From IMG/VR virus record IMGVR_UViG_2877826310_000002, positions 19,922-83,921 of that record: a stretch of 64,000 nt of DNA; one strand, written 5' to 3'. The stretch's first letter is position 1, and each line of letters opens with the position of its first letter. The stretch is from a virus (Duplodnaviria > Caudoviricetes). A program made the position numbers and the translations under genes. Under the pieces are notes generated by a model, which saw only the letters and a program-made list of their open reading frames with translations, was not told where the DNA came from and did not search any database. Positions 2,640-63,670 of this stretch are shown piece by piece.

Positions 2640-3115
2640 CCATCAGCCCGCTGCGCCTTGCCCTGTTTCTGCTGGTGGTCGGCTTGCTGACCTGGTGCGC
2701 TTTTGAGTACCAGGGCAACCAGCTCGATGTCGCCCGCGCTGATCTGGTCGACGCCGCTGCAGATCTGCACACCGAGCGAGAGGCTGCCCGCCTGGCCGGC
2801 GAACAGCTCGCAGCGCGGGACCAGCTCGACACCCACCATAGCCAGGAACTGAACCGTGCCCGCTCTCAAATCAATGCTCTGCAGCTGGCTGTTGCTGATG
2901 GCCGTTACCGGCTGCGCATCAAAGCCATCTGCCCCGCAATGCCCGGTGCCACCGGCACCGCCGGCCTGGCTGATGCAGGCAGCGCCGAACTCGCAGCAGA
3001 CGCTCGACCTGATTATTTCACCCTCCGAGATCAGCTTGCCCTCAGCCGGCAAATGATCCTCGGCCTGCAGGACTACATCCGCCAGGTCGTGCAACGCACG
3101 CCGGCACAACCCTGA
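2636..3115 (+). CDS. Rz-like inner-membrane spanin
   Basis: N-terminal TM plus coiled coil after the endolysin. Confidence 0.8.
   Translation: MTISPLRLALFLLVVGLLTWCAFEYQGNQLDVARADLVDAAADLHTEREAARLAGEQLAARDQLDTHHSQELNRARSQINALQLAVADGRYRLRIKAICPAMPGATGTAGLADAGSAELAADARPDYFTLRDQLALSRQMILGLQDYIRQVVQRTPAQP
2874..3056 (+). CDS. Rz1-like outer-membrane spanin lipoprotein nested in Rz
   Basis: Alternate frame; lipobox VTGC followed by Pro-rich segment; start approximate. Confidence 0.7.
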   Translation: MLCSWLLLMAVTGCASKPSAPQCPVPPAPPAWLMQAAPNSQQTLDLIISPSEISLPSAGK

Positions 3116-3148
3116 CCCCTTGCAACTCAACCTTACGGAAACACCGAC

Positions 3149-3439
3149 ATGAGCGAAGTAAACCGCAGCATCACCCTGGAAATGGGCAACTTGGAATTCA
3201 CCTTCAACCTGAGCCCTCAGGTGATCACCAAGTACTTCAATGCCACCACCCAGGCGAACAAGGTCGCCCCGGCGCACAACCTGTTGATGGGCACCGTAAA
3301 GCAGGAAGACAAAACAGCGCTCAAGCAATTGCTGGAAAACCCGGTCACCACCATGACCATGGCCGGTGCGTTGCTTGAAGAGTATTCGCCGGACGTTGAA
3401 GTGATCGTAAAAAAGTCCTCGGGCACGCTGAAGGCTTGA
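3149..3439 (+). CDS. Tail assembly chaperone; -1 frameshift extension to 3603
   Basis: Before tape measure; slippery A AAA AAG at 3409-3415; -1 frame open to TAA 3601-3603. Confidence 0.75.
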   Translation: MSEVNRSITLEMGNLEFTFNLSPQVITKYFNATTQANKVAPAHNLLMGTVKQEDKTALKQLLENPVTTMTMAGALLEEYSPDVEVIVKKSSGTLKA

Positions 3440-6295: not shown

Positions 6296-7461
6296 CCGTC
6301 GATTTTAAAAAGGCCCTCAGTGATTCCGGCGTGCCTACCACTGATGCGCAGCTCAAGCAGGCCTGGGAAAAGCTGGCCGTTGAGCAGGGCAGCACACTGA
6401 GCAACACCAGCGCTTACAGCCCGTTCTGGCGGATCATCACGGCGCTGGTCACCAAACCGGTGCTGTGGCTGCTGGAGTTCGTCAGCGGTACGGTGCTGCC
6501 GAACTTCTTCGTCAAGACCGCCGGCGCGCAGTGGCTGGATATGCTGGCCTGGGCAGTGAACATCGAGCGCAAGGCTGCCACGGTGGCCACCGGTGAACTG
6601 CTGTTCACCCGCGCCAATACCGGCGGCGAGCTGGAAGTGCCGATCGGCACGGTCGTCCAGTCACCGACCCTCAACGGTCATATCTATCAGTTGGTGACCA
6701 CCGAACCGCGCAGCTTTGAAGAGGGCCAGAGCCAGTTGGTGGTGCCGGTCAAGGCCGTGGGTGCCGGCAGCGGCTACAACCTGGCACCGGGTTACTACGC
6801 GGTGCTGCCCCAGTCAGTGCCTGGCATCGTCCAAGTGGTGAACAACACCGACTGGCTGCAGACGCCAGGCGCGGATTCCGAGCACGACGACCAGTTGCGC
6901 CTGCGTGTGCGCAACCAGTTCTCGGCGGTGAACCAGTGGCACACCGACGCGGTGTACCGGGCAATCATCACCGGGTTTCCTGGGGTAGCCGCTGACGGCG
7001 TGTACTTTGAACACGGTGCGCCTCGTGGCCCCGGCAGCGCCAATGCCTTTGTGCTGTTCGACGCCGGCGTGCCCGCCGATACGTTCCTGGAGCAGATCAA
7101 TACGCACATTCGTGACGGCGGCAATCATGGTCACGGCGATGATCTGTTGGCGATGGCCATGCCTGAAACGCTGAACGCGATCAGCCTCAAGGTCTGGCCC
7201 GTGGCCAACCTCACCGTGCTGCAGCTGCAGACGCTGCAGGCCGAGATCGGGCTGTTCATCCGCGCTGCTTTTCGCGAGAGCACCCAGAGTGACTACGCGC
7301 CGACCCGCACGTTTCCTCAGTCGCGGTTCAGTTTCAGCCGCTTGACCGAAGAGCTGCACGCTCAGTTTCCGAACATCAGCTCGTTGCGGTTTGCCAACAG
7401 CGACATCGTGTCAGCGCTGGACATCCCCCGGATCAGCACCCTGGCGGTGGTTCTGCAATGA
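6292..7461 (+). CDS. Baseplate J/gp47 family protein
   Basis: 389 aa; GAD.E.D..LR.R and PRGPGS motifs. Confidence 0.88.
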   Translation: MTVDFKKALSDSGVPTTDAQLKQAWEKLAVEQGSTLSNTSAYSPFWRIITALVTKPVLWLLEFVSGTVLPNFFVKTAGAQWLDMLAWAVNIERKAATVATGELLFTRANTGGELEVPIGTVVQSPTLNGHIYQLVTTEPRSFEEGQSQLVVPVKAVGAGSGYNLAPGYYAVLPQSVPGIVQVVNNTDWLQTPGADSEHDDQLRLRVRNQFSAVNQWHTDAVYRAIITGFPGVAADGVYFEHGAPRGPGSANAFVLFDAGVPADTFLEQINTHIRDGGNHGHGDDLLAMAMPETLNAISLKVWPVANLTVLQLQTLQAEIGLFIRAAFRESTQSDYAPTRTFPQSRFSFSRLTEELHAQFPNISSLRFANSDIVSALDIPRISTLAVVLQ

Positions 7462-19753: not shown

Positions 19754-19943
19754 CGTCGCGCAGCCCTGACTCAGCGACCGTCCGCAACTTGAGTGCAATG
19801 CCGCAGGAATTGGCCAGGCCAGTCAATTGGCCCACGGTGGTGGCCGGGTCTTGAAGCGCCTGGCCAAAACGAATCAGGCGCTCGCCCAGGCTTTCGAACT
19901 CGGTGCGCAGGTGGAGGTGTGTTCCTTGCGTGAGCGTGCTCAT
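19743..19943 (-). CDS. Hypothetical phage protein
   Basis: Coupled small ORF. Confidence 0.55.
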   Translation of the reverse strand: MSTLTQGTHLHLRTEFESLGERLIRFGQALQDPATTVGQLTGLANSCGIALKLRTVAESGLRDDES

Positions 19944-21499: not shown

Positions 21500-21979
21500 T
21501 TACGACTTGAACAGTCCGAACACTTCCCGCTTGCCTTTACCTATCATTCCTGTTATCGCAGATACTTTGACTTGCGCATCCGTGTGTCGCTTCGCTTGAT
21601 CCGCGTCAAGTTCTCCGAGGCGCGTGTGCTTCATCACCTCTTTGCATTTTGAGAACTCTCGCCGCACTCCACGCATTGCTGTATCTATTGCAATGAATGC
21701 TTGATCAGATGGTGGAACTATTCGATATCCCTTGCCGCGCACGCTCACGATATAAATCTGATACTGCGTGAGCAGGGCCTCTTTGAACTGCTCCACACGG
21801 TCCAGAATAACGAACTGGCAGTTGACCATTTCAGCTGCAGTCGTTGGCTTGGGTAGATTTAGCGCCCAGGTCAGCCAGTCGTGGCTGATCAGCTGGCCGT
21901 CCGCAAACTTGTCTTCGTGGAAAAGCTCGAGCGCCTTATCCAGCGACCAGCTATTTGGCTTGAGAGGAACGACGCTCAT
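21500..21979 (-). CDS. Accessory protein of the RAMP-like cassette (possible winged helix)
   Basis: 159 aa; ATGA overlap with the upstream gene; SVRGKGYRI wing-like motif. Confidence 0.7.
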   Translation of the reverse strand: MSVVPLKPNSWSLDKALELFHEDKFADGQLISHDWLTWALNLPKPTTAAEMVNCQFVILDRVEQFKEALLTQYQIYIVSVRGKGYRIVPPSDQAFIAIDTAMRGVRREFSKCKEVMKHTRLGELDADQAKRHTDAQVKVSAITGMIGKGKREVFGLFKS

Positions 21980-22545
21980 TGCAGAACCTCAACGGTGAAA
22001 CGGCCGAATTTCGGGCGGTAGTCGCCTACGCCGCAGTATTGGCCAGCGTCTTCCAGGCATTTCAGAACCTGGGCGCGGTCGATTGATTCTTGGTCGAATG
22101 CGATCTCGCAGATGGTTGACCACTCGCGGAACAGAGGGCGGTACCGGGTGATGCGTGCGGTGCCAACCTTTACCGAGCGAGCGTCATAGAACGCCTCATC
22201 CCACAGACCTTCAACGGTGCGCGGGCCTTCATAGATGATCGGGCAGCGGGAGTCCATGATTTCAACCGAGCGCTTGAGTTGAGTGCCCATCTTTGAAAGC
22301 TTGCCGCCTGCCACCAACGACGATTCGATATTGATTCCCGGCAAGTAAGGCCCGATATCATCAGAGAAGTACAGACCGCCGCGCCATTCGCTGCGCGCGA
22401 TAAGTTCGTGGTCTTCGTCGGACTTCTTGCGTTTTGAAGTCAAGACTTTGTGCGCCTTGGTCAACTTGTTCAGCGGATCGGCGAAAACGTCGGCGTGAAT
22501 TAAAAGCGGACGGGTGCCGATGATCTTAACTTTCAAAGTTTGCAT
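21976..22545 (-). CDS. Stand-alone RAMP/Cas7-like protein
   Basis: N-terminal strand LKVKIIGTRPLLIH; PYLPGINIESSL (cf. RAMP PxIPGSSxKG); C-terminal Gly loop GVGDYRPKFGRF; GAGG RBS. Confidence 0.75.
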   Translation of the reverse strand: MQTLKVKIIGTRPLLIHADVFADPLNKLTKAHKVLTSKRKKSDEDHELIARSEWRGGLYFSDDIGPYLPGINIESSLVAGGKLSKMGTQLKRSVEIMDSRCPIIYEGPRTVEGLWDEAFYDARSVKVGTARITRYRPLFREWSTICEIAFDQESIDRAQVLKCLEDAGQYCGVGDYRPKFGRFTVEVLQ

Positions 22546-22687: not shown

Positions 22688-22752
22688 CCCATGCCTTGCC
22701 CCGCCTCGCCATACCACGCCGTACCCCGCCACACCATGCCTCGCCCAGCCTC
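22688..22752 (-). repeat. Array B: 13 x (NN-GGY) pentamers, probable guide-like ncRNA
   Basis: Minus strand: gaGGC tgGGC gaGGC atGGT gtGGC ggGGT acGGC gtGGT atGGC gaGGC ggGGC aaGGC atGGG. Confidence 0.9.
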
Positions 22753-22861
22753 GGGTGGTTTTACTGGATCGACCCAGAGGGACCGGACTCCTGCCAGCTT
22801 TCGCTGGTGACTATCGCCACCGGAAAGCCCGCTCATAGAACGGGCAGACCGCTGTAAACAG

Positions 22862-22916
22862 CCCTCGCCTTGCCCCGCCACACCATGCCAGGCCTCGCCG
22901 TGCCACATCCCGCCGC
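22862..22916 (-). repeat. Array A: 11 x (NN-GGY) pentamers, probable guide-like ncRNA
   Basis: Minus strand: gcGGC ggGAT gtGGC acGGC gaGGC ctGGC atGGT gtGGC ggGGC aaGGC gaGGG. Confidence 0.9.
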
Positions 22917-22974: not shown

Positions 22975-23283
22975 TCAGGCAAGGAACACGCCTTGGTGGC
23001 TTTGATCTTGATCATGCTGCTGGTCCGGATCTGCTGGAGCTGCGCAGGCAAAGCTGATGATCCCTTGCGCGAACGCAGCTGCGACCATTGCTGCCTGACG
23101 TTTTACGCCCAGCTTGAACATCGCGCTCGCGATACGCTTAGCGGTGGTGGATGGCGCCATTCCCAAAATTTGAGCGGCCTCCTTAACTGTCTTGCCGTTG
23201 GCTACAGCCAAAACGCATTGAAGTTCGCGAGGTGCCAGGCCTTGCCCTAAGAATCCTTTCCAACTACCAAGCTCAATGTTCAT
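22975..23283 (-). CDS. LuxR-type HTH phage regulator, first gene of the PL operon
   Basis: LAPRELQCVLAVANGKTVKEAAQILG..KLGV; GGAG RBS. Confidence 0.85.
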   Translation of the reverse strand: MNIELGSWKGFLGQGLAPRELQCVLAVANGKTVKEAAQILGMAPSTTAKRIASAMFKLGVKRQAAMVAAAFAQGIISFACAAPADPDQQHDQDQSHQGVFLA

Positions 23284-25246: not shown

Positions 25247-25770
25247 AAGCCGTCATCCCGAAGTCACCGCGTCGCGTACCTAAGCGCAAGCAGATCGGCT
25301 TGCGTGAGAAGCCAGAGCAGGCCACCGCGTGGGATCGCCTGCCTTTTGTGGGTCGCGACCACAGCAAGCATCACTCCAGCTGGGACGTGCCCCTGTCGGG
25401 TGGGTACTTCGCTGGCATTGATATTGGAAAGCTCGTGTTCCGCATGTATCTGAAATACGTTCGCGACGAGCAAAACAATCCCATTGCCCTGTGCAGCGTT
25501 CACCTTACCGGGATGTTGCACTCGCTGGAAAACAGGAACCCGGTCACCGACGAAGAAATCGATTCTGTTCGGGGCCAGAAGGTCGGCTTCTTCGGTGAGC
25601 TTTCCACGTGGCTTGAAGCCTCTGCATGCAGGCTGGGCAGCAGCCTTGATGCGATACCACACCGTTCTTTCGTTCAGTCCGCAAACGAAGCGCTGCAGCG
25701 TGACGATGCGTCGCTCATGGATGCGGTTGAGGCTGCCGGGCGCAAGAAGCAAGTGGAGGCCGCGCAATGA
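25243..25770 (+). CDS. Hypothetical phage protein
   Basis: Coupled 175-aa ORF. Confidence 0.6.
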   Translation: MKAVIPKSPRRVPKRKQIGLREKPEQATAWDRLPFVGRDHSKHHSSWDVPLSGGYFAGIDIGKLVFRMYLKYVRDEQNNPIALCSVHLTGMLHSLENRNPVTDEEIDSVRGQKVGFFGELSTWLEASACRLGSSLDAIPHRSFVQSANEALQRDDASLMDAVEAAGRKKQVEAAQ

Positions 25771-26489
25771 GCTTGATCACCAGCACCGCCCCGACAATGT
25801 CATCCCAAGAAATCGCCGATCTTGTCGGCTCGCGTCATGACAATGTCAAAACCGCAATTGATCGACTCGTAGCCAGGCGAGTGATTTCCCAACCTGCAAT
25901 GCAGGATGGGCCAAGGTCTGCCAATGGTGTGGTTGTTCAGGAATACCTGCTCATCAAGCGCGACAGTTTCATCGTGGTTGCCCAGCTCAGCCCAGAGTTC
26001 ACAGCAGCGCTGGTTGACCGGTGGCAGGAACTGGAAGACGTCGCTCGCCCGATGACCCAGGCCGAAATCACCGCGGCGAACGCCAATCACCTGGTGGAAA
26101 TGGAGCGTCAGCAGCGTGAGCAGCAGGTGGCCATCGACCGGATCGAGCGCCGGGTTGAGGTGATCGCCGAACAGAGGGTCTGGGATCACTGCCCGCAGAA
26201 CTGTATCCCGCTCGGGCGCATTCAGGCGGAAATGAACAAGACCTATGGCATGTCCGGACCGATGGTTTCATTCGTGCTGCGCCAGTGGCCGAACCAGCCC
26301 AATCACGCAGGCATGGTCCGTAACGGCCACGAGGAAGCGAAGGGCAGCCAGTACATCGTCTGGTCCAAGAGCCTCGTCACCGCCGCGTTCAAGCGCTTCG
26401 TTTCAGAATGCCTGATGGTCAGCGCCACCCAGGCCACACACCCCTATTTTGAAGGCCGGTTCCGACTGGTGCAGAAGGTCAAGTCATGA
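25767..26489 (+). CDS. Rha-family regulatory/antirepressor protein
   Basis: TMSSQEIADLVGSRHDNVK..AALVDRWQELE. Confidence 0.85.
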   Translation: MSLITSTAPTMSSQEIADLVGSRHDNVKTAIDRLVARRVISQPAMQDGPRSANGVVVQEYLLIKRDSFIVVAQLSPEFTAALVDRWQELEDVARPMTQAEITAANANHLVEMERQQREQQVAIDRIERRVEVIAEQRVWDHCPQNCIPLGRIQAEMNKTYGMSGPMVSFVLRQWPNQPNHAGMVRNGHEEAKGSQYIVWSKSLVTAAFKRFVSECLMVSATQATHPYFEGRFRLVQKVKS

Positions 26490-27067
26490 GCGATTCCAAA
26501 CCAATCATCACAACGGACGGCATTGTTCTCGACGTCGACCATTACAAGAAGTACGCCGATGGGCCATTGATATTCAAGTGCTTTGAGGTCATAGACGAAG
26601 CCATTGATGCCGTGGAGGAAGGCGCAAAAATCCAGCTTCACGACGACACCCATTTTGGCCTAATCGCTGCGTACTGGGCGTTGACGGCACTTTTCGAAAG
26701 GCATACCGGAGCCAACGCCAAAGAGGTGTCGGACAAGCGTATCGATAATCTTCGTGCGCAGTTGCTTGGCGGTGCGCAGCAATCTATGTCGATGCCCGCA
26801 AGCAAGCCTCTGGAAAAGCCTGTGATCCTCAGCAAGGAATATCTCGACGAGTTGGACGACTACACGCTGGCCAGCCTTGCGTTGACTGATTGCGATAACA
26901 GCCAGGTGAGCTTGCTCGCGGCCGACCACAGTCTGTCAGCCGGTGACTTCCGACGCACGATCGTGCCGATGGCAAACGCCCAGACGGCCTTACGCCTACT
27001 GTGCCGCCGCTTGCTGAACGATGGAGGTAGCGCCTCTCACCTGCCTGCCGGGGAGACGCTTCAATGA
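26486..27067 (+). CDS. Hypothetical phage protein
   Basis: Coupled 193-aa ORF. Confidence 0.6.
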   Translation: MSDSKPIITTDGIVLDVDHYKKYADGPLIFKCFEVIDEAIDAVEEGAKIQLHDDTHFGLIAAYWALTALFERHTGANAKEVSDKRIDNLRAQLLGGAQQSMSMPASKPLEKPVILSKEYLDELDDYTLASLALTDCDNSQVSLLAADHSLSAGDFRRTIVPMANAQTALRLLCRRLLNDGGSASHLPAGETLQ

Positions 27068-27891
27068 GCGTTCAAGCAATGTCCTGGGCGCTGTCACAGC
27101 AGATCGTCACGGAGTCTCACGGTCGCCATGTCCTGCTGTGCCTGGCCAACTATGCGGATCAGGATGGACGGGCTGCATTCCCTTCAATATCAAGCCTGTC
27201 GCGCGATACTGGCCTGTCTCCGCGCACTGTGCAGTATCGCATTCGCGACCTCGAAAATTTGGGTGTGATCAAACGCGGAAATCAGGCCATTCCAGCGGCC
27301 TATATCAACCAGAGAGACCGCATTCCTGTGTGCTACGACATCGACCTTAAACGGGGTGCACAGCATGCACCCGGTGCACACGAAGACGTAACGGGGTGCA
27401 CGCCAGAACAGAACGGGGTGCACGCCACGACAGAACGGGGTGCACAGCATGCACCCAATCCACCCATTAACCACCCATTAACCATCCATAACCATAAAGA
27501 GGGCGATAACGCCTCTGATAAGGATGAGCAGAAAGGAAAATCTATTCGCAAAAATCCAAAGTTCGACCCTGCATCGGTGAAGCCTGCTAACGCTTCGGAA
27601 AAGGCATGGGCTGACTTCTGTGATATGCGGAAAACCAAACGGGCACCACTGACGCTTCGTGCATGCGAAATGATCGCCGCCAAGCTGGCAAATCATGCTG
27701 ACCCAGACGCGGTGCTGGATAAGTCCACCGCCAGCAGTTGGAGCGACGTGTACCCCGAGTCTGTTCTGCCAGGCACCAGCGCCAAGAGCGGGAAGCCGTC
27801 CCGTCACACCCAGCTCGATCAGGTGGACCACACCGACGGCCTGGAGCTGGACGGCAATGGCAACTACCGGATTTCTGGGGGTAGCCAATGA
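27064..27891 (+). CDS. Replication initiator (O-like, N-terminal HTH)
   Basis: VLLCLANYAD..FPSISSLSRDTGLSPRTVQ; internal iterons. Confidence 0.85.
   Translation: MSVQAMSWALSQQIVTESHGRHVLLCLANYADQDGRAAFPSISSLSRDTGLSPRTVQYRIRDLENLGVIKRGNQAIPAAYINQRDRIPVCYDIDLKRGAQHAPGAHEDVTGCTPEQNGVHATTERGAQHAPNPPINHPLTIHNHKEGDNASDKDEQKGKSIRKNPKFDPASVKPANASEKAWADFCDMRKTKRAPLTLRACEMIAAKLANHADPDAVLDKSTASSWSDVYPESVLPGTSAKSGKPSRHTQLDQVDHTDGLELDGNGNYRISGGSQ
27350..27495 (+). repeat. Replication origin iterons
   Basis: AACGGGGTGCAC at 27350, 27390, 27412, 27434, then CCACCCATTAA-like repeats. Confidence 0.8.
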
Positions 27892-28676
27892 CCACTCAAC
27901 CACGCTATGCCGTCGAAAACCGCTCGGGCGTTTGCTCGATCCACGGTCAGTACACCAACGCGCTCGTCGAGCAGTTCGGCGCAGGCCCGATCTGGTACGG
28001 CTGCCCGCGCTGCGAGTTTGATAGCCGCCACTCGCCTGACATCAGCGTCCGCGCTGGGGGCACGCTTCTACACACTGACCGCCTGTTGAACGCTCGCCTG
28101 CTCGATACATGCATCCCGGCCCGCTTCCAGCAGGCCACCCTTGAAAATTGGGTTGCTGGGAGTGACGACGCCAAGACGAAGGCATGGAACGTCGCCACGA
28201 GCTTCGTGGAGGCCTTCGCCGAAAACTATCAGGCCGGCCGCTGCGTGATGCTGCTGGGGCAGGTCGGCACCGGCAAGACCCACCTTGCCGCTGCCGTTTT
28301 GCAACAGGTCATCAGGTACTTCGGCAATCAGGGCGTGACTGGCCTGTACACAACAGCCAGCGCAATCATCAGATCGGTCAAAGGCACGTTCGGCAATCCT
28401 GCCAAAACCGAGTCGCAGGTCTACGCCGATCTGATCGCCCCGCACCTACTGGTGATCGATGAGGTGGGCCTACAGAACGGAACTGACTTCGAGCGCGCAA
28501 CATTGTTCGAGGTGATCAACGGCCGATACGAGCAGCTCAAGCCGACAATCATCGTCAGCAACCTGAGCATCACCGACCTGAAGCTGAGCATGGGTGATCG
28601 CACTGTGGACCGCCTGCGCGATCGTGGCGGGCTGGTCTGCCTGTTCCGCTGGCCGTCGGCGCGAGGTGCCGCATGA
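27888..28676 (+). CDS. DnaC/IstB-like helicase loader ATPase
   Basis: GQVGTGKTHLA Walker A; LLVIDEVG Walker B. Confidence 0.9.
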   Translation: MTTQPRYAVENRSGVCSIHGQYTNALVEQFGAGPIWYGCPRCEFDSRHSPDISVRAGGTLLHTDRLLNARLLDTCIPARFQQATLENWVAGSDDAKTKAWNVATSFVEAFAENYQAGRCVMLLGQVGTGKTHLAAAVLQQVIRYFGNQGVTGLYTTASAIIRSVKGTFGNPAKTESQVYADLIAPHLLVIDEVGLQNGTDFERATLFEVINGRYEQLKPTIIVSNLSITDLKLSMGDRTVDRLRDRGGLVCLFRWPSARGAA

Positions 28677-30004
28677 GCCGCGAACTTTACAGCCTTGAGG
28701 CTGAGCATGGCCTTCTGGGCGCACTGCTGCTGGACGCCTCCCTGTTCGACGCCATCACCGCCCGGATCACGACGGCCGACTTTGCCTACGACGATAACGC
28801 TGCGATGTATCAGGCGATCATCAACACGCACGCCACCGGCCAGCCTGTAGATGTGGTGACGGTGGGTATCGAATACCCGGACCTGCCAAGTGGCGCGCGA
28901 ACCCTGGCCTACGCATCAGAGATCGCCAAGAACATCCCCAGCACCGCGAACTGGGCCGGATATCAACGCATCGTGCTGGAGCGTTCCGCGCTGCGCCGAG
29001 TGGTTGAGGCGGCGGAGGTGATCAAGGATTCGGCCAGTGAAAGCTTGCCGGTCGCTGACATCATCGCACTGGCCCAGCAGGCAACGGCGGATCTGCGCGA
29101 CCTGGGCGCACTAGACCGGAAGGATTACTACAAGTACAGCGAGGTGCTGACTCCCGTAATCGATGGCATAGACAGTCGATTCAACGGAGCAAAACAGCTC
29201 GGCCACTCAACCGGCTTAAAGGATCTGGACGAGCTGATCCGAGGCCTTCGCAACAAAAACATGATCGTTATCGCCGGTCTGCCGGGCTCAGGCAAAACAA
29301 CGCTGGGCGTTCAGATCGCTCAGAAGATTGCATGCGTCGACAACGGTGTCGGTCTCATCGTCTCGATGGAAATGACCAAGGAAGAGCTGGTCACGCGCGG
29401 CATTGCATCCGTGGGCGGCGTGAGCCTGACGCGTCTTGATGAGGGGCACACGCTTCAGGACGAAGACTGGCCGAAGATCACCAGTGCCGTGAACGTGCTG
29501 CACAAGTCCAAGCTGTTCGTCTGCGATGAGGAAGGCATGACCGCCGCCCGCATTCGTTCGACAGCCAGGCAGGTGCAGCGCAAGGAAGGGCTGAGCATTG
29601 TGGTGGTGGACTACATCGGCCTGATCGCCGCCGAGGGCGCCGGGCAAAACCGAACGCTCGAGCTGGGCAAGATATCCACTGCGCTCAAGAACATGGCCAA
29701 AGAGCTGGACGTGCCTGTCGTTGTGCTCGCGCAGCTCAACCGTGGATCAACCAACCGCACCGACAAGAAGCCACGCCCGAGCGACCTGCGGGACTCAGGC
29801 CAGATCGAGGCCGACGCTGACGTCGTGATCCTCGTTCACCGGGATGCAGACAGCGAGGAAGGCCAGAACGGAGTGGTTGAATTGATCGTTGGCAAGTGCC
29901 GACACGCCAAAACAGGGTCGTGCATGGTCCAGCAGCAGGGGCAGTTCGTCCGCTTTGTGGACTTTGCCGGGAATCCATATGAGGGTGTAGACAAAATCAT
30001 GTAG
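28673..30004 (+). CDS. dnaB: DnaB-like helicase; last 26 aa displaced by an IS (native end 31242)
   Basis: GLPGSGKT, QLNR, SDLRDSGQIE motifs; frame resumes after the IS at 31162. Confidence 0.9.
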   Translation: MSRELYSLEAEHGLLGALLLDASLFDAITARITTADFAYDDNAAMYQAIINTHATGQPVDVVTVGIEYPDLPSGARTLAYASEIAKNIPSTANWAGYQRIVLERSALRRVVEAAEVIKDSASESLPVADIIALAQQATADLRDLGALDRKDYYKYSEVLTPVIDGIDSRFNGAKQLGHSTGLKDLDELIRGLRNKNMIVIAGLPGSGKTTLGVQIAQKIACVDNGVGLIVSMEMTKEELVTRGIASVGGVSLTRLDEGHTLQDEDWPKITSAVNVLHKSKLFVCDEEGMTAARIRSTARQVQRKEGLSIVVVDYIGLIAAEGAGQNRTLELGKISTALKNMAKELDVPVVVLAQLNRGSTNRTDKKPRPSDLRDSGQIEADADVVILVHRDADSEEGQNGVVELIVGKCRHAKTGSCMVQQQGQFVRFVDFAGNPYEGVDKIM

Positions 30005-32567: not shown

Positions 32568-32653
32568 GGAAGGTGGCGCTCAGTGGTGGGCAAACCGGTT
32601 TGAACCCGGTGCTATCGGTAACGGTAAGAGTTCGACTCTTTCACCTTCCGCCA
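32568..32653 (+). tRNA. tRNA-Ser(TGA), non-canonical 8/4 fold
   Basis: GGAAGGTG/CACCTTCC 8-bp acceptor, 4-bp T stem, TTCGACT loop, long variable arm, G discriminator, CCA. Confidence 0.82.
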
Positions 32654-32658
32654 ATTAA

Positions 32659-32742
32659 GCCGACTGAGAGTGCGCTGGGACGCACGCTGGACTGTAAATC
32701 CGGTACTTAGGTTATGTGGTTCGATTCCATCAGGCGGCACCA
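32659..32742 (+). tRNA. tRNA-Tyr(GTA)-like, 8/4 or 9/3 fold
   Basis: GCCGACTG(A)/(T)CAGGCGGC acceptor with one mismatch, CTGGA-CTGTAAA-TCCGG arm, A discriminator, CCA. Confidence 0.72.
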
Positions 32743-32746
32743 ATTT

Positions 32747-32833
32747 GGAATTTAACAAGCCTGCGGAGGCTTGACGGTTTGCTAAACCGATCGATCGGCA
32801 ACGGTTGTGGTTCGACTCCACTGCATTCCGCCA
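32747..32833 (+). tRNA. tRNA-Ser(GCT)-like, 8/4 fold with 7-bp D stem
   Basis: GGAATTTA/TGCATTCC acceptor, CAAGCCT-GCGG-AGGCTTG D arm, GTGG/CCAC T stem, G discriminator, CCA. Confidence 0.75.
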
Positions 32834-32880
32834 TTTTTGTATAGCCATAGTCAGGGTGGGCCTCATTCAGCAACAAGTCT

Positions 32881-63158: not shown

Positions 63159-63554
63159 AGGGCATTGTCTGTTTGTGCTCTGATAGCCGGAATCTGACGC
63201 AGAGTCACGGTGCTCCTATTTTGCTGTCGGTTCCCGACAGATCGTGGACAAGTCCACTCCCACGGCCTTCGGCCAGAATCCCAGGCATCGTGTGTGCCGG
63301 TATCATCTCCTACGGCCTTTGGTCAGCATCAAGAGCTGCGTGCGCAGAGATCATCTTTTGCAACGCTTTCAGGCCGGTTTTTGCAGGCATGGTCTCTTTC
63401 TTTTGAAGGACATTTCCGAGAGAATCCCCGACCGCTTGCGTCCCTCGATTTGTGCTTCTACTCTCCGCCCGTCGCTGCCCATCAGCGATCGGGTTTAGTA
63501 GCCCGCAGTGAGTTAAGGCGCAACACAGCCGTGTTTCATCAGGTTTTGTCCCGA

Positions 63555-63670
63555 TGCTATGGCGACTGTGCGCTTGGCACCTTCGGGTGCGCCGGTTCTT
63601 AGCTCACCGGTCTACTAACTTGCGTACAGTTGCCGCCTTTCGTTTAGTAGCGAACAGGCAGCGACTTCAT
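63555..63670 (+). ncRNA. Possible C4-antisense-like structured RNA
   Basis: GGCGACTGTGCGC/GCGTACAGTTGCC long stem, CACC-TTCG-GGTG hairpin, CTACTAA/TTAGTAG pairing; bounds approximate. Confidence 0.4.

Follow-up and report, generated by a model that had tools for sequence, protein, structure and literature searches.

How can a prophage carry a guide directed at a gene of which it holds its own copy? The question is raised by a 64,000-nucleotide stretch of DNA (positions 19,922 to 83,921 of IMG/VR record IMGVR_UViG_2877826310_000002; hereafter the window), which is part of an 83.9-kb provirus record. The host element is a lambdoid Pseudomonas prophage that encodes CI, Cro, an O-like gene with iterons, a DnaC-like gene and DnaB. 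Two arrays of short repeats on its minus strand are predicted guide RNAs (vrRNAs) of the Viral Interference Programmable Repeat (VIPR) system, and an initial annotation had pointed out that the prophage's own dnaB gene nearly matches the first of them. We consider it likely that this array, vrRNA-A, targets the dnaB genes of rival prophages and that the prophage's own dnaB is spared by a pre-existing patch of mismatches affecting two codons.

VIPR is an already published system, to which this locus adds a natural case; the account used here follows the available portions of three 2026 bioRxiv preprints (10.64898/2026.04.26.720920, 10.64898/2026.04.26.720927 and 10.64898/2026.10.15.759431). The Vipr protein is a RAMP homologue, and a vrRNA consists of 9–16 GGY/NN (YNNGG) repeats followed by a conserved tail. 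In pairing with double-stranded DNA the NN dinucleotides follow a '1-nt skip' rule, and most of the bases passed over are wobble positions; targets lie on either strand without a protospacer adjacent motif (PAM), binding represses transcription, and the natural targets are competing phages and satellites (10.64898/2026.04.26.720920). The Vipr filament sequesters the GGY triplets, and DNA is engaged from the 3′ end of the vrRNA (10.64898/2026.04.26.720927).

Two guides and their matches in rival prophages

The guides and the effector gene beside them were delineated as follows.

22865..22914, minus strand: vrRNA-A repeat tract, 10 GGY-NN units (direct reading)
22795..22864, minus strand: vrRNA-A structured 3′ tail, GGGCUGUUUACAGCGG... 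(3′ end unmapped; conserved motif and fold)
22691..22750, minus strand: vrRNA-B repeat tract, 12 GGY-NN units (direct reading)
21976..22545, minus strand: vipr gene, 189 aa (P0001), RAMP-like effector (PDB match E = 6.1e-51; phrog_4652)

Read 5′ to 3′ (22914..22865), the units of vrRNA-A are GGC-GG GAT-GT GGC-AC GGC-GA GGC-CT GGC-AT GGT-GT GGC-GG GGC-AA GGC-GA. The dinucleotides of vrRNA-B are TG GA AT GT GG AC GT AT GA GG AA AT, and its tract runs into a tail, GGGCGGUAAUCCGC..., which gives vrRNA-B an extent from 22750 to about 22640 on the minus strand. The last NN before the tail is nearly invariant among relatives (AA in 34/41 rows, GA in 5/41), and for this reason that of vrRNA-A probably belongs to the handle and its variable guide is taken as units 1–9. 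Residues 1–188 of P0001 align to residues 1–190 of the 'SUSP1 Vipr protein' (PDB 36pp_D), and P0001 has H17, R136, D175 and Y176, numbered as the residues of Pseudomonas fulva Vipr that contact G1 and G2 (10.64898/2026.04.26.720927). Its protein cluster adjoins arrays on the same strand in 97 of 155 array-bearing loci. P0001 has no Pfam match, a protein atlas returned unnamed viral clusters only, and a single-sequence AlphaFold model of it was unusable (mean pLDDT 36.9). On the strength of the Vipr homology beside the arrays and of the array anatomy, the arrays and the gene at 22545..21976 are assigned to VIPR as a type-II-like locus, with the arrays as its predicted vrRNAs.

The nine-dinucleotide pattern of vrRNA-A was found in 50 IMG/VR contigs. 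In 48 of these contigs the match lies in a dnaB homologue (60–97% identical), always at a single site encoding NGVTELIVGK, and every wobble base varies among them. The wobble-skipping guide proposed in the initial annotation is thus borne out, as a VIPR vrRNA with perfect targets. In one related prophage (L004, DnaB 91% identical) the site reads GGC GTC ACC GAG CTG ATC GTT GGC AAG and matches at 9/9; the homologous sites of L005 and L007 score 8/9 and that of F10 scores 7/9. By the published mechanism, Vipr protomers would assemble on the vrRNA as a polymer that buries each GGY, each NN would be presented to double-stranded DNA with every third target base skipped, and binding would repress transcription. 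vrRNA-A would aim at rival dnaB codons 400–408, which encode GVTELIVGK with CTN for Leu, and since the skipped bases are wobble positions, silent wobble changes in a rival dnaB would give no escape.

The second guide points in the same direction. In three proviruses (L179, L193 and L212) a cI-type repressor gene of the S24 peptidase kind matches 10 of the 12 units of vrRNA-B at its 3′ end, and each of the three also carries a 9/9 dnaB site for vrRNA-A. vrRNA-B would aim at the cI-type repressor in some of the rivals addressed by vrRNA-A. The two guides appear from these matches to converge on the same rivals, in keeping with the published description of P. fulva-clade guides as directed at resident prophages (10.64898/2026.04.26.720920).

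Carriers of VIPR also occur among the predicted targets. L216 (IMGVR_UViG_3300004233_000047) has a 9/9 dnaB target for vrRNA-A together with its own vipr homologue (53% identical) and an array, which suggests that a VIPR-bearing phage can itself be a target. Arrays of a GTDB Pseudomonas contig (L133) and an IMG/VR contig (L136) match eight consecutive NN units at positions 26181–26203 of the window (minus strand), antisense to an Ant-like anti-repressor gene (phrog_63; open reading frame 25767–26489) in which the base skipped is the wobble base. By these matches the prophage belongs among the predicted targets of VIPR.

The near-match in the prophage's own dnaB

28673..30004, plus strand: dnaB-type replicative helicase, 443 aa (Pfam DnaB_C 6e-78, DnaB 3e-19; phrog_19)
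29870..29896, plus strand: vrRNA-A near-target, dnaB codons 400–408 (GVVELIVGK), 7/9 NN units

Codons 400–408 of the prophage's own dnaB read GGA GTG GTT GAA TTG ATC GTT GGC AAG. The site begins 1197 nt into the gene, so that the NN dinucleotides fall on codon positions 1–2 and the skipped base on the wobble position. As the initial annotation had stated, it matches units 1–9 of vrRNA-A at seven of nine dinucleotides (15/18 bases); elsewhere in the window, on both strands, all positions stay below 6/9. Equally, GGAGTGGTTGAATTGATCGTTGGCAA at 29870–29895 (plus strand) is the sole window match to the pattern GGNGTNACNGANCTNATNGTNGGNAA at up to three mismatches (expectation 0.02; a match in 2/100 shuffles), and the guide dinucleotides joined into a contiguous 18-mer have no match in the window. 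The two differences are also as annotated: codon 402 is GTT (Val) where the guide has AC (Thr), and codon 404 is TTG where the guide has CT, a silent first-position change of a Leu codon (CTN to TTG). When the nine dinucleotides were permuted, a window match of at least 7/9 arose in 58/2000 trials (0.029), in agreement with the chance of about 0.02 first given.

The available text of the VIPR preprints offers no figure for the number of mismatched NN units that abolishes silencing. Natural guides are reported to have no self match at 80% or more of NN, the cut-off used in the target search (10.64898/2026.04.26.720920), and against this value the self-match of vrRNA-A is borderline: 78% by units (7/9; 7/10 with the last unit) and 83% by bases.

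A one-base-skip code among related arrays

The code was tested independently of the published rule. When 56 unique arrays of the Pseudomonas family were scored against 526 kb of related loci, 42, 11 and 2 diagonals reached 7/9, 8/9 and 9/9 at a gap of one base; over 20 permutations the means were 17.4, 0.25 and 0 and the maxima 29, 3 and 0. Gaps of 0, 2 and 4 yielded 0–1 matches at 8 or more, so the excess is specific to gap 1. A smaller set of eight arrays behaved in the same way at gap 1, and reversing the unit order or swapping the NN gave no match of 7 or more. In 9 of 13 matches the base passed over was a wobble position or its complement, by a phase call that used longest-open-reading-frame assignment and is rough in G+C-rich DNA; both strands were matched. 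The initial annotation had rediscovered from sequence alone a noncontiguous, wobble-skipping code published in 2026. The carrier's own homologue could be compared with the target for two of 10 guide–target pairs (G000, 7 vs 9; L004, 5 vs 8), too few to generalise.

These data bear on the bare alternative that the array is unrelated to dnaB and the resemblance a pure coincidence. That the own-genome match is within chance, and that a global scan shows no excess (both detailed below), would be compatible with it. Against it stand the 9/9 matches in 48 dnaB homologues, the lack of any 9/9 match in permuted controls of the family databases (0/200 and 0/20 sets), and the experimental demonstration of the code (10.64898/2026.04.26.720920). 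We regard coincidence as next to negligible.

A rare allele shared with one close relative

29873..29884, plus strand: 12-nt patch GTG GTT GAA TTG (alignment of 13 dnaB genes)

The two mismatches belong to a compact block of differences. Where the patch sits, 11 close relatives have GTC ACN GAG CTG/CTC; the patch abolishes the match at guide units 3 and 5, besides altering two wobble bases. Among the 13 aligned dnaB genes it is common to the window and one provirus, L222, alone. Of six IMG/VR contigs with the own-allele pattern (Val plus TTN), L222 alone has a close dnaB (94% identical). Besides the window, dnaB-type sites in IMG/VR comprise 48 Thr/CTN, 7 Thr/TTG and one close Val/TTG. At the protein level, GVTELIVGK is present in 87 and GVVELIVGK in three of the best 120 DnaB cluster representatives.

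The Val/TTG allele is thus rare, yet array carriers are not alone in having it. The L222 record (38.9 kb, 80% complete) shows neither a vipr gene nor an array, and a comparison of dnaB alleles in prophages with and without the array, proposed as a check in the initial annotation, could draw on a single carrier, no other carrier of the vrRNA-A guide having been found in scans of IMG/VR and GTDB genomes that left out the window's own record (n=1). Of the annotation's further proposal, self/non-self discrimination by target recoding, one part stands and the other does not: self-sparing by mismatch is likely, and in-place recoding sits poorly with a patch shared with a record that shows no VIPR.

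Recoding in the active sense would mean that a Thr/CTG ancestor silenced its own dnaB and that two changes were fixed in place as an escape. The Thr/CTN form is the majority and probably ancestral, CTG to TTG is the sole silent NN change available among these nine codons, and three of the four internal codon-position-1/2 bases private to the own dnaB (the divergent C-terminal tail left out) fall in the site, inside the patch. The identical patch in L222 nevertheless carries two wobble changes that are irrelevant to VIPR, and because of these changes and of the lack of VIPR in that record, import of a pre-existing minority allele is the simpler explanation. Recombination would readily supply it, as the dnaB genes are mosaic (the closest relative per 90-nt window shifts from L173 to L222 and L185), and GVVELIVGK also recurs in two distant representatives that are only 60–61% identical to the own DnaB. 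We therefore think active recoding unlikely; the patch was probably inherited or recombined in.

Taken together, the carrier's DnaB is 90–97% identical to those of its rivals, and the patch would remove pairing at units 3 and 5 and leave 7/9; to judge from this comparison, the carrier's dnaB is most likely spared through allele mismatch. The patch would have been acquired from a minority allele and not built stepwise in this phage, and a dnaB-directed guide would persist only in a genome with such a mismatched allele. This account presumes that the vrRNA is expressed, that the rival gene is silenced, and that two mismatched units suffice to spare self.

Observations that weigh against self-sparing

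Several observations count against this account. The own-genome match is not significant by itself: with all nine-unit windows of both arrays allowed, it was equalled in 48/400 permutations at gap 1 (0.12) and in 116/400 over gaps 0–3 (0.29), so the 0.029 for one guide rises to 0.12–0.29 once other arrays and gaps are admitted, and the meaning of the match comes from the dnaB genes of relatives. When 327 arrays were scored globally against 2.56 Mb of loci, most of them unrelated, no gap-1 excess emerged (diagonals at 7/9, 8/9 and 9/9 numbered 412, 7 and 1, and in four permutations 348–412, 7–12 and 0–1); our interpretation is that this locus set lacks the targets, but the result remains negative. 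The patch occurs in L222, a record that shows no VIPR, and TTG at the codon-404 Leu is no commoner than codon usage predicts (7/55 Thr-allele dnaB sites, against 10% TTG among the Leu codons of the early-right genes). The remaining two points concern the guide itself. Variable units 6–9, those nearest the 3′ tail, fully match the own dnaB, and as VIPR engages DNA from the 3′ end some self-binding is conceivable. Unit 2 has GAT in place of GGY, which could impair the guide.

The match of units 6–9 would suit a functional partial self-targeting, in which the 7/9 similarity is kept and weak VIPR binding tunes the prophage's own dnaB expression or replication timing: engagement would start where pairing with the own site is complete, and 15/18 bases is close to the published 80% cut-off. 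The published searches, as far as the available text goes, gave no self matches at that threshold, and the residual similarity is expected from the homology of own and rival dnaB alone. Self-tuning of this kind seems to us very unlikely.

The GAT unit raises the further possibility that vrRNA-A is a decaying, inactive guide, for which the question of self and non-self would be moot. In the published reporter assay, perturbation of GGY abolished silencing (10.64898/2026.04.26.720920), and no second carrier of the guide was found in IMG/VR or GTDB genomes. All nine variable NN, including those on either side of the GAT unit, nevertheless still match rival dnaB perfectly, and both the tail and vipr are intact. 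Decay is accordingly judged highly improbable, and sparing of the own dnaB through its mismatched allele is the reading retained here.

Conservation of the arrays and their occurrence in other phages

The arrays are hypervariable where they would pair and conserved elsewhere. About 20 distinct versions of the NN string precede the shared tail among the 41 rows of relatives, with the GGY and the flanks conserved; L004 combines near-identical flanks with a wholly different set of NN. The vrRNA-A tail motif with three GGYNN units before it was found in 34 IMG/VR stretches and two GTDB contigs. The tail folds at −36 kcal/mol (z = −4.3; 0/200 shuffles equally stable), and its inner hairpin covaries with that of LESphi2 in a by-eye reading; over the whole 300-nt region the predicted fold is no more stable than those of shuffles (z = −1.5, +1.1). 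With Rfam the arrays gave no match, whether the gathering or the E-value threshold was applied. The window contains no CRISPR-type repeats; the arrays repeat every 5 nt and stand next to vipr and small uncharacterised genes.

Other readings of the arrays were set aside. A 121-aa open reading frame over them lacks conservation, and in LESphi2 (L003) and L004 every frame is interrupted. TRAP-like spacers, antitermination, G-quadruplexes and rut sites were dropped since the NN carry information.

A scan of IMG/VR for eight GGYNN units returned at least 120 contigs, which, among the matches listed, range from 40 to 71% G+C and usually have several modules of about 9–16 units each. A few contigs have very long or numerous tracts: L033 has 140 units in one run (6311–7010), L030 has 18 modules and L089 has 20 pattern matches, and L048 belongs with them. 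The tracts of L033, L030 and L089 far exceed the 9–16 units typical of type II vrRNAs.

LESphi2 (OQ594955.1) has three unannotated vrRNA arrays at 2941–3235, between a 'sigma factor' gene and a 194-aa hypothetical gene. The third matches 9/9 in L165 and, by eye, 9/11 in the F10 gene annotated as a partition protein ATPase. F10, MD8, LESphi3 and PseuP_224 share the upstream LuxR-type gene found in the window, and the array scan found no arrays in them. In L005 (10443–10640) and L007 the LuxR-type gene is 80% identical; no VIPR arrays are present there, and a csrA/rsmA-like open reading frame stands in their place, a call made by eye from its translation MLILTRRPGETI...

The prophage setting

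23283..22975, minus strand: small LuxR-type gene bordering the array-bearing gap on its 5′ side
21500..21979, minus strand: candidate vipr-accessory gene vap, 159 aa (P0002), overlapping the vipr stop (phrog_5926)

The arrays fill a 430-nt gap in the leftward early operon, from the LuxR-type gene (23283..22975) to the 189-aa open reading frame (22545..21976). P0002 has no Pfam family and no PDB sequence match, and is named as a candidate vap from the published two-gene locus plan. A cluster of median length 166 aa lies downstream of the arrays in 39/155 loci; it was equated with P0002 by position and size, not by identifier.

Elsewhere in the window, three to four 22-nt iterons (GGTGCAC...AACGG) lie at 27350–27463 (plus strand) inside the O-like replication initiator gene (27064–27891), a region that is likely the phage origin. 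A tRNA-Ser(TGA) gene is located within the prophage at 32568–32653 (plus strand). Direct repeats of two families (D4 and D20) near it, at 32715–32836, resemble its T-arm region and may be further tRNA-like pieces. Near the window end, at 63458–63640 (plus strand), are a C4 antisense RNA (Rfam, 70 bits) and an a1b1 target motif (61 bits), an immunity element of the P1/P4 type.

Comparison with related systems

The locus resembles the type II VIPR systems of the SUSP1 and P. fulva clades in the homology of Vipr, the four RNA-contacting residues, the GGY/NN vrRNAs (10 and 12 units) with a conserved structured tail, the hypervariable NN and the wobble-aligned 1-nt skip. It shares with them a prophage host and targets that lie on both strands and in rival Pseudomonas prophages, a cI-type regulator among them. 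It differs in having both vrRNAs upstream of vipr, where SUSP1 has one upstream and three downstream; in a guide aimed at a replicative helicase, where the chief targets of the P. fulva clade are, by the main text, lysis–lysogeny regulators; and in the carrier's 78% near-self site.

Avoidance of autoimmunity by a self-match lower than the non-self match has been described for vrRNA-targeting vrRNAs (10.64898/2026.10.15.759431). As there, the carrier here owns the targeted locus too, and its self-match is lower than its match to rivals. Those guides, in the available account, hit the vrRNA/vipr locus of Enterobacteriaceae phages, whereas the gene at issue here is an essential replication gene and what separates self from rival is a single 12-nt patch, in which one change is silent and the other exchanges Thr for Val.

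With class 1 CRISPR-Cas (Cascade, with its Cas7 RAMP filament), VIPR shares a RAMP-fold polymer on a guide RNA, bases flipped at a fixed period, and RNA-guided targeting of the double-stranded DNA of mobile elements. Unlike it, VIPR has no repeat-spacer array, adaptation genes or PAM; its pairing proceeds two nucleotides at a time, with a period of 5 nt in the guide and 3 nt in the target, and the outcome described in print is repression and not cleavage.

TRAP-type ring proteins bind about 11 (G/U)AG-NN repeats, a conserved triplet and 2-nt spacer with a 5-nt period. The arrays are similar in period, in triplet plus spacer and in unit number. To our knowledge, TRAP spacers carry no information, whereas NN of the type found in the window match rival genes far above chance.

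Implications for mosaic prophages

The guide against dnaB and the mismatch patch in the own gene, 7 kb away, could also be seen as a two-locus poison–antidote pair, an idea that we put forward tentatively and think rather doubtful. If it held, a recombinant that combined the VIPR locus with a rival Thr/CTG dnaB would shut down its own helicase, the early-left and replication modules would have to be inherited together, and recombination between mosaic prophages would meet a barrier. With the cI-directed vrRNA-B, a resident rival could be induced while its replication is blocked.

Self and non-self are separated at this locus by one 12-nt patch in an essential gene, which offers a natural test of how many NN mismatches, and at which positions, are tolerated. 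The replicative helicase, and not regulators alone, is a likely target of silencing between prophages.

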